This document shows, one piece after another, positions 10,216-10,317 of a DNA stretch of 64,000 bases (the first letter of the stretch is position 1; every line of letters starts with the position of its first letter). The DNA lies in the NCBI RefSeq assembly GCF_000027125.1, contig NC_017626.1; one strand, given 5' to 3'. The translations under genes were made by a program, and so were the position numbers. The notes under the pieces are model-generated. The model had not been told where the DNA came from. It saw nothing but the letters and a program-made list of their open reading frames with translations, and searched no databases. The DNA is from Escherichia coli 042 (GTDB taxonomy: Bacteria; Pseudomonadota; Gammaproteobacteria; Enterobacterales; Enterobacteriaceae).

Positions 10216-10317
10216 ATATGTTTAAAAAATCGCGTTTTTTCGACATATCCCCAAAACATGTCGATGGCATAAACGTATTCCAACGACATGTTTAAAAATC
10301 GCATTTTATCGACATAT
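10216..10317. repeat. Two copies of a ~33-bp AT-rich near-palindrome between convergent genes
   Basis: ATATGTTTAAAAAATCGCGTTTTTTCGACATAT at 10216-10248 and ACATGTTTAAAAATCGCATTTTATCGACATAT at 10286-10317; second copy overlaps the stop codon of the minus-strand glycosyltransferase gene. Confidence 0.7.

Follow-up and report, generated by a model that had tools for sequence, protein, structure and literature searches.

Two AT-rich boxes at positions 10216 to 10317 of the window (the whole 64-kb stretch of DNA that was analyzed) very probably represent the distal part of the operator array of a sofic gene, the gene itself having been deleted. The sofic product belongs to the class II Fic AMPylases, has a C-terminal winged helix, and constitutes a single-gene anti-phage system, and the element in the window is a relic of the recently reported self-operator DNA of winged-helix Fic enzymes. 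What looked like a pair of regulatory palindromes between flagellar glycosylation genes would be the deletion scar of a defense gene. The relevant features, in window coordinates, are as follows.

7981-9318, plus strand: fliI
9321-9755, plus strand: fliJ
9758-10162, plus strand: tagD-like cytidylyltransferase gene (134 aa; Pfam CTP_transf_like, E = 2.7e-20), which ends the fliI-fliJ cluster of Flag-2
10156-10213, minus strand: sofic pseudogene remnant in two fragments, from blastn against locus L003 and tblastn with SoFic
10216-10248, minus strand (sofic sense): box 1, ATATGTTTAAAAAATCGCGTTTTTTCGACATAT on the plus strand and ATATGTCGAAAAAACGCGATTTTTTAAACATAT in the sofic sense; equivalent to the middle box of three-box arrays
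10249-10285, minus strand: inter-box segment of the 70-bp unit, carrying a conserved ATCGACAT half-site
10254-10293, no strand: strongest local dyad, with 18-bp arms that are 89% complementary; specific to the window allele
10286-10317, minus strand (sofic sense): box 2, the distal-most box, ACATGTTTAAAAATCGCATTTTATCGACATAT, in the sofic sense ATATGTCGATAAAATGCGATTTTTAAACATGT; core intact
10306-12849, minus strand: GT2-family glycosyltransferase gene (Pfam Glycos_transf_2), stop codon at 10306-10308

Two boxes in the spacer between the tagD-like and glycosyltransferase genes

A 143-bp spacer with a G+C content of 38% lies between the convergent tagD-like gene and the glycosyltransferase gene. 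The initial annotation described two near-perfect palindromes of about 33 bp in this spacer, almost identical in sequence and 70 bp apart. Both boxes are present, and their similarity and spacing were confirmed: they are direct repeats with identity at 32 of 36 aligned positions (89%) and a start-to-start distance of 69-70 bp. The description as near-perfect palindromes was too generous. Box 1 pairs 12 of its 14 arm positions (6 + 6 pairs and a 2x2 internal loop) and folds as DNA with -5.2 kcal/mol (z = -2.2), and box 2 has little palindromic character (-1.7 kcal/mol, z = -0.16). Stronger than either is the inter-box dyad at 10254-10293, which had not been listed and has the most stable DNA fold in the spacer (-12.5 kcal/mol, z = -5.6). 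Box 2 does overlap the glycosyltransferase stop codon, as had been noted, with the TAA at 10306-10308 of the minus strand lying within the box. The two boxes do not fill the spacer, since positions 10156-10213 are a remnant of the 3' end of sofic.

The actual repeat unit is 70 bp long and arranged in tandem, and a box makes up the half of it that is best conserved. The core of box 1 differs from the family core, ATATGTCGATAAAA, by a single mismatch (GAT to GAA), and the ATCGACAT half-site of the inter-box segment reads ACATGTCGAT on the plus strand at 10256-10265. No third copy was found in the 64-kb window, and a pattern built from box 2 had no match in 100 shuffled versions of it. Tandem Repeats Finder called no repeat on the window because 1.5 units are too short for it. 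An Rfam scan of positions 9000-11500 at E <= 10 returned only two eukaryotic families, both below threshold.

Evidence for a deleted sofic cassette in Flag-2

The segment 7981-12849, with its four genes, matches the E. coli Flag-2 (lateral flagella) locus, and another part of the window has 99.3% identity to E. coli chromosomes. RefSeq homologues of the tagD-like gene are annotated as 'adenylyltransferase/cytidyltransferase family protein' and are found downstream of fliJ. The tagD-like and glycosyltransferase genes lie in VR1 of Flag-2, a known hotspot for cargo genes (PMC6993521); the comparative paper on Flag-2 contains no mention of Fic (PMC6993521).

In Pseudocitrobacter faecalis DSM 27453 (locus L013), the gene order is fliI, fliJ, the tagD-like gene, sofic (minus strand), three boxes, and the glycosyltransferase gene. 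Judged by alignment, this layout looks like the undeleted state. Window positions 7000-10177 correspond to L013 2761-5938 (91%) and positions 10215-12204 to L013 7061-9051 (88%), whereas the ~1.1 kb between the two aligned sides of L013, comprising sofic and the proximal unit, is absent from the window. The proximal unit, with its promoter, lies within this deleted part, and box 2 is the array-terminal box that adjoins the glycosyltransferase gene, likewise in L013. E. coli AHM8C212RI (locus L003) carries fic and three boxes in the Flag-2 spot, directly after the tagD-like gene. By blastn, window positions 9735-10174 match L003 3-442, and positions 10177-10213 match L003 519-555 with 97% identity. 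Box 1 aligned to L003 1568-1600 and to L013 from 7061 onward; over the whole of 10215-10317, identity was 87.5% to L003 1568-1671 and 88% to L013 from 7061 onward, and the sequence fits the consensus of the 52-unit family described below.

The two fragments of the remnant correspond to the end of sofic. Fragment 10156-10174 includes the old sofic stop codon, and fragment 10177-10213 encodes residues ~316-327, in the winged-helix domain. A tblastn search of the 64-kb window with SoFic found only these 12 residues, NIAKRQTASSSL (316-327). No sofic gene was found in cis at the window boxes other than this 58-bp 3' remnant (10156-10213), and the window copy was therefore classed as a relic and not as a working copy. 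The element had been attributed to the convergent tagD-like/glycosyltransferase pair; it consists instead of tandem direct repeats left by a deleted sofic cassette.

We propose that a sofic cassette was once inserted between the tagD-like and glycosyltransferase genes in the Flag-2 variable region, and that sofic, its promoter, and the proximal box were subsequently lost in two deletions. These deletions would have spared 58 bp from the 3' end of sofic and two boxes without a promoter, and the glycosyltransferase reading frame would now enter box 2 and terminate there. By inspection, there was no simple microhomology at the deletion junction (ggctatgtt/aa/atatgttt). As gene and promoter have both been lost, the site in the window is most likely an orphan. 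The boxes in the window most likely do nothing specific and form an inert scar, at most binding SoFic made elsewhere. Flag-2-type sofic is intact in 9 E. coli genomes, and 87 have only the 37-bp scar. At the Flag-2 site, loss of sofic far exceeds its retention: the 5426 E. coli genomes have 9 intact copies and about 87-107 scars. Such frequent loss fits a toxic defense gene.

The deletion also accounts for the unusual end of the glycosyltransferase. Its C-terminus in the window reads ...VEALAGKESSGICR / ...ALAGKESSGICR before the stop, compared with ...EALG in E. coli strains that have REP elements in the spacer. The last ~10 codons (AGKESSGICR) and the stop derive from the box 2 junction (10306-10340), and the odd C-terminal extension is explained by this junction between the sofic deletion scar and box 2. 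About 1170 E. coli genomes carry REP/BIME elements in the same spacer, and their homology to the window starts only at 10338. Examples of these palindromes, gccggatgcggcgtaaacgcc... and gtaggcctgataagcgaagcgcatcaggc, are found at 2390-2490 of L057 (E. coli MS6192) and at 2380-2490 of L058 (U13A). On this comparison, the sofic cassette has evidently replaced REP/BIME elements in the lineage of the window. REP/BIME elements and boxes share their position in the tagD-like/glycosyltransferase spacer and a palindromic character, but they are unrelated in sequence: REP elements are GC-rich and dispersed genome-wide, in contrast to the AT-rich, sofic-linked boxes.

A second tagD-like copy, partial and frameshifted, follows the sofic-plus-array module in E. 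coli AHM8C212RI (L003 1846-2020) and in Escherichia sp. E1V33 (L056 2489-2782). The second copy suggests that the recombination event bringing in the cassette also duplicated part of tagD.

Between the Flag-2 segments of the window and of E. coli 118UI (L063), there are 324 differences over ~6700 aligned positions (~4.8%). Within 10127-10340, which spans the 3' end of the tagD-like gene, the scar, the boxes, and the 3' end of the glycosyltransferase gene, there are 0 mismatches in 214 bp, where ~10 would be expected. An identical relic in two Flag-2 alleles that are ~5% divergent could be a hint of constraint. A third allele, L001, has ~7 differences in the 10127-10340 region and carries changes in the conserved A-tract of box 2, and for this reason the mismatch-free stretch is probably a recombination mosaic.

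Distribution of box arrays and association with sofic

We searched 5426 complete E. coli genomes by sensitive BLAST using window positions 10205-10325 as the query. A total of 394 genomes had matches, and these were not scattered. In ~240 genomes, an array lay directly upstream of a gene annotated fic, with 8 overlapping places matched in each; 107 genomes were matched at the same Flag-2 spot; and the remaining matches were a few relics on integrative elements. Many unrelated copies genome-wide, which the initial annotation had named as the mark of a generic repeat, did not emerge from the search of E. coli genomes, and only sofic-linked arrays or relics were recovered. In E. coli O104:H4 (locus L002), nine boxes with a period of 70 bp lie between a gene for an XRE-type HTH protein and fic in the leuX-tRNA island. 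Beyond the XRE-type HTH gene, this island carries another tandem repeat, of 59 bp (3 copies with 78% matches), at L002 2730-2905.

Many Gammaproteobacteria, like other E. coli, have the repeat immediately 5' of sofic. The distribution beyond E. coli was examined by an unbiased pattern scan (ATGTTTAAAAAN{9,10}ATCGACAYAT) of one genome per species, covering 100,044 species. The scan returned 50 loci, mostly from Enterobacterales, with others from Shewanella, Moraxellaceae, a Pseudomonas plasmid, Lysobacteraceae, Deefgea, Wohlfahrtiimonas, Ignatzschineria, and Caedibacter. At ~30 of the 50 loci, a SoFic homologue (50-99% identity) started 0-100 bp from a box, always in the same orientation and reading away from it; the others were cut by a contig end, had sofic pseudogenes, or were box relics without the gene. 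The proximal box adjoins the sofic start codon (...TTTTTTAAAC(AT)ATG). Arrays contained 1-11 boxes, with a period of 69-71 bp in every array, and sofic was their sole constant neighbor. Contexts of the sofic-plus-array module included Flag-2, the leuX island, and integrative elements.

Two-box relics without sofic were seen in integrative-element DNA of Salmonella arizonae and diarizonae, Citrobacter, Atlantibacter, and E. coli O152:H23 (L055 2574-2675; also L052, L014, L034, L038, and L004). These relics adjoin the same 383-aa element gene that flanks intact sofic in O104:H4, which points to loss of sofic with retention of its boxes at a second site, independent of the loss at Flag-2.

Anatomy of the repeat unit and a predicted promoter

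Alignment of 52 distinct internal units over 78 columns (alignment A1) gave the consensus AAACATaTnGccgngAcATGTTTAtggcATCGACAtgTTntggcnATATGTCGATAAAAnnnGnTTTTTTAAACATaT in the sofic sense. Mean column identity was 84% over the 78 columns, of which 23 were invariant. Four blocks stand out, AcATGTTTA, ATCGACA, ATATGTCGATAAAA, and TTTTTTAAACAT, and they are laid out in the sofic sense as ...AcATGTTTA-N4-ATCGACA-N10-ATATGTCGATAAAA-N5-TTTTTTAAACAT, with the last box adjoining the ATG. The inter-box segments are homologous to each other, and a CRISPR array with 33-bp repeats and 37-bp spacers was ruled out on that ground.

The box palindrome and the palindrome ATCGACAnnT-N7-AnnTGTCGAT were kept in 91-94% of cells in the 52 units. 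Across these units, no covariation or pairing above that of shuffles was detected for the box palindrome, the ATCGACA/TGTCGAT palindrome, or the inter-box dyad. The inter-box dyad of the window pairs in 61% of cells, equal to the shuffled controls, and is not conserved in the family. Dyad arms are conserved as sequence and not as pairs, a pattern more in keeping with a site read by a symmetric protein dimer than with a hairpin. Function as an RNA or DNA hairpin was ruled out because covariation was absent.

In 22 of 23 loci, the unit next to sofic carries a predicted sigma-70-like promoter, GTGACA-17-TATTAT or TATGAT, whose -10 element lies between the ATCGACA and TGTCGAT half-sites. A promoter scan tool independently called this site in L013 and L029. 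Among distal or orphan units, only 1 of 34 had a -10 element as defined by A at position 2 and T at position 6. A candidate promoter inside the box (-35 TCGACA, -10 GATAAA) was dropped in favor of GTGACA-17-TATTAT, a proximal-unit-specific site that the scan tool also called. At the promoter positions, the window unit has GGAATA and TGTTTT, compared with GTGACA and TATTAT in proximal units. No promoter was called across the window boxes; on the sofic-sense strand, the only call was TTAACA-18-CATCAT, running from 10215 to 10186 within the sofic remnant.

SoFic as the candidate binding protein

The Fic protein associated with the arrays has 358 aa and consists of the Pfam domains Fic_N, Fic, and SoFic-like_C (winged helix). 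It matches the PADLOC SoFic model (E = 3.7e-121), is near-identical to PDB 9vjc (E = 5e-211), and is orthologous to S. oneidensis SoFic (E ~ 1e-148). Recent defensome surveys count SoFic among the defense systems. SoFic confers phage protection on bacteria and is toxic upon expression in E. coli (PMC12249575).

In a 2026 preprint, the dimer of S. oneidensis SoFic was found to co-elute with DNA from its own upstream region, 300 bp in length (10.64898/2026.07.09.737422). Binding was strongest for the 100 bp adjoining the ATG, at a resolution of 100 bp and with the S. oneidensis protein, and no SoFic-DNA binding was seen with a GC-matched random fragment or with the monomeric L31D mutant (10.64898/2026.07.09.737422). 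We inspected the fragment sequences given in Table S2 of that preprint. The best-bound fragment ends in TTATGTCGATAAAAGAAGGTTTTTTTAAAC and has three ATGTCGAT / ATCGACAT half-sites in addition; the middle fragment has two half-sites, and the distal fragment, the one least bound, has none. In the mloA upstream fragment F1, the same box, ATGTCGATAAAA-N6-TTTTTTTAAAC, forms the last part of the bound 100 bp and immediately precedes the ATG. A promoter-like TCGACA-18-TATTAT in the S. oneidensis upstream fragment overlaps the half-sites. The suggestion in the initial annotation that the boxes could be a protein-binding site gained support here, as they are homologous to sofic-upstream DNA that is bound by dimeric SoFic in S. 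oneidensis (10.64898/2026.07.09.737422, Table S2). The two settings differ in several respects. S. oneidensis has a single box and scattered half-sites, whereas enterobacteria have 70-bp phased units, and the half-site spacing in S. oneidensis differs from that of the enterobacterial units, which speaks against reading the boxes as SoFic operators. Unlike the S. oneidensis fragment, the window copy has lost gene and promoter.

CccR of Yersinia pseudotuberculosis, a Fic protein with a C-terminal winged-helix/HTH domain, represses its own gene as a dimer through inverted repeats at its -35/-10 region (PMC9755527). By analogy with CccR, dimeric SoFic may bind the half-sites and repress its own promoter, and the upstream boxes may serve as extra operators. 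The boxes are thus reasonable candidates for SoFic operators. Half-sites flank a promoter hexamer in both CccR and sofic units, but CccR has a single operator, AGATAATCAT-N26-ATGATAATCT, in place of an array, and its half-sites differ in sequence from those of sofic units, which counts against the analogy (PMC9755527). An inverted repeat of this CccR type is absent from the window sequence, and the resemblance is one of mechanism only. CccR and SoFic match in the Fic core only, with the best non-SoFic PDB matches at E ~ 1e-9 to 1e-12.

Phased tandem arrays of binding sites are known from sopC of the F plasmid (12 x 43 bp) and from plasmid iterons. The box arrays resemble these in their head-to-tail arrangement, their fixed period, and a short inverted repeat in each unit that is conserved as sequence; they differ in having no replication or partition genes next to them. 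In the leuX-island copy, the XRE-type HTH protein encoded upstream of the array could be the binder there. The Flag-2 copies have no gene for an XRE-type HTH protein, the distal box being adjoined by the glycosyltransferase gene, and such a protein was ruled out as the universal binder.

The S. oneidensis preprint defines neither a motif nor tandem arrays (10.64898/2026.07.09.737422), and a full-text literature search for the motif strings found no paper that describes them in its main text. The base-level box motif, the predicted promoter, and the amplification in 70-bp tandem units seem not to have been described before. The candidate SoFic motif, ATCGACA / TGTCGAT half-sites plus ATAAAA-N5-TTTTTTAAACAT, is defined at base level, compared with the earlier resolution of 100 bp; it is accompanied by a predicted promoter with its -10 between half-sites and is part of a module amplified in strict 70-bp register. 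These details matter more for SoFic biology than for the window locus. The 70-bp arrays, with up to 11 copies, might also act as a DNA platform that holds dimeric, AMPylation-competent SoFic, with occupancy setting the threshold of an abortive-infection toxin, phage motifs competing for or triggering it, and orphan arrays acting as decoys or buffers; we consider this improbable.

Alternative explanations

No rival explanation fits the element better than a sofic deletion scar. A bidirectional transcript-end element (a terminator or 3' stabilizer) serving the convergent tagD-like and glycosyltransferase genes would suit the position between the two genes and the stable fold of the dyad at 10254-10293 (-12.5 kcal/mol as DNA, z = -5.6). 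REP/BIME elements, often located at mRNA 3' ends, fill the spacer in most E. coli, and a 3'-end element may be needed there. We nevertheless regard this explanation as quite unlikely. The stems had been judged weak as terminators by the initial annotation, and rightly so: no GC-rich stem followed by a T run was called at 10160-10330, the hairpins of the boxes have little stability (-5.2 and -1.7 kcal/mol), covariation is absent in all three dyads, and the strong dyad is not conserved in the family. An origin from a sofic array, in turn, accounts for the sequence. The region 10160-10330 shows no intrinsic (Rho-independent) terminator, and the stems are AT-rich and weak.

The boxes would still have a role if SoFic encoded elsewhere in the genome bound them in trans, either being titrated by them or blocking transcription through the Flag-2 spacer. 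The intact core of box 2, the single mismatch of box 1 from the consensus, the identity of the relic between alleles ~5% divergent elsewhere, and the recurrence of two-box relics without sofic on integrative elements of Salmonella, Citrobacter, and Atlantibacter are in line with such a role. Its likelihood is nonetheless low, because E. coli genomes with the identical relic match at this site only (2 overlapping places), without a second array or a second Flag-2-type sofic, the 64-kb window has no sofic, and L001 has changes in the A-tract of box 2, as expected under neutral decay. A generic dispersed repeat or miniature mobile element (REP-, ERIC-, or MITE-like) that landed in the spacer would likewise be short, AT-rich, partly palindromic, and intergenic, and the sofic-plus-array module does occur in several unrelated contexts. 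This origin is extremely unlikely: the window has no other copy, there is no Rfam match, and the matches in 394 of 5426 E. coli genomes are confined to sofic arrays and relics. The head-to-tail arrangement with a fixed 70-bp period also contrasts with the single units, terminal inverted repeats, and target duplications of such elements.

Antitoxin-like ORF and related motifs in viral contigs

In the O104:H4 leuX island, a 47-aa ORF (L002 283-426, minus strand) starts at the sofic stop codon. The AS1 antitoxin has 47 aa and is encoded downstream of EcSofic (PMC12249575), and the ORF in L002 agrees with this published description. In the Flag-2 sofic copies (L003 and L013), the tagD-like gene extends over the sofic stop codon and leaves no room for an AS1-type ORF. 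This lack of room for AS1 could partly account for the usual loss of sofic at Flag-2.

A related motif, ATATGTCGAT-T5-N5-TTTTTAAACAT, was observed in four viral contigs (L059 3257-3287, L060 3820-3850, L061 7745-7775, and L062 2723-2753); L062 and L031 apparently belong to one viral contig of 13,200 bp. In all four, ATGTCGAT / ATCGACA dyads precede the motif, small ORFs lie downstream, and sofic is absent nearby. A Pfam search of the small ORFs flanking the motif in the four contigs gave nothing useful. Another protein may read a similar site in these contigs, or phages may carry SoFic-type sites.
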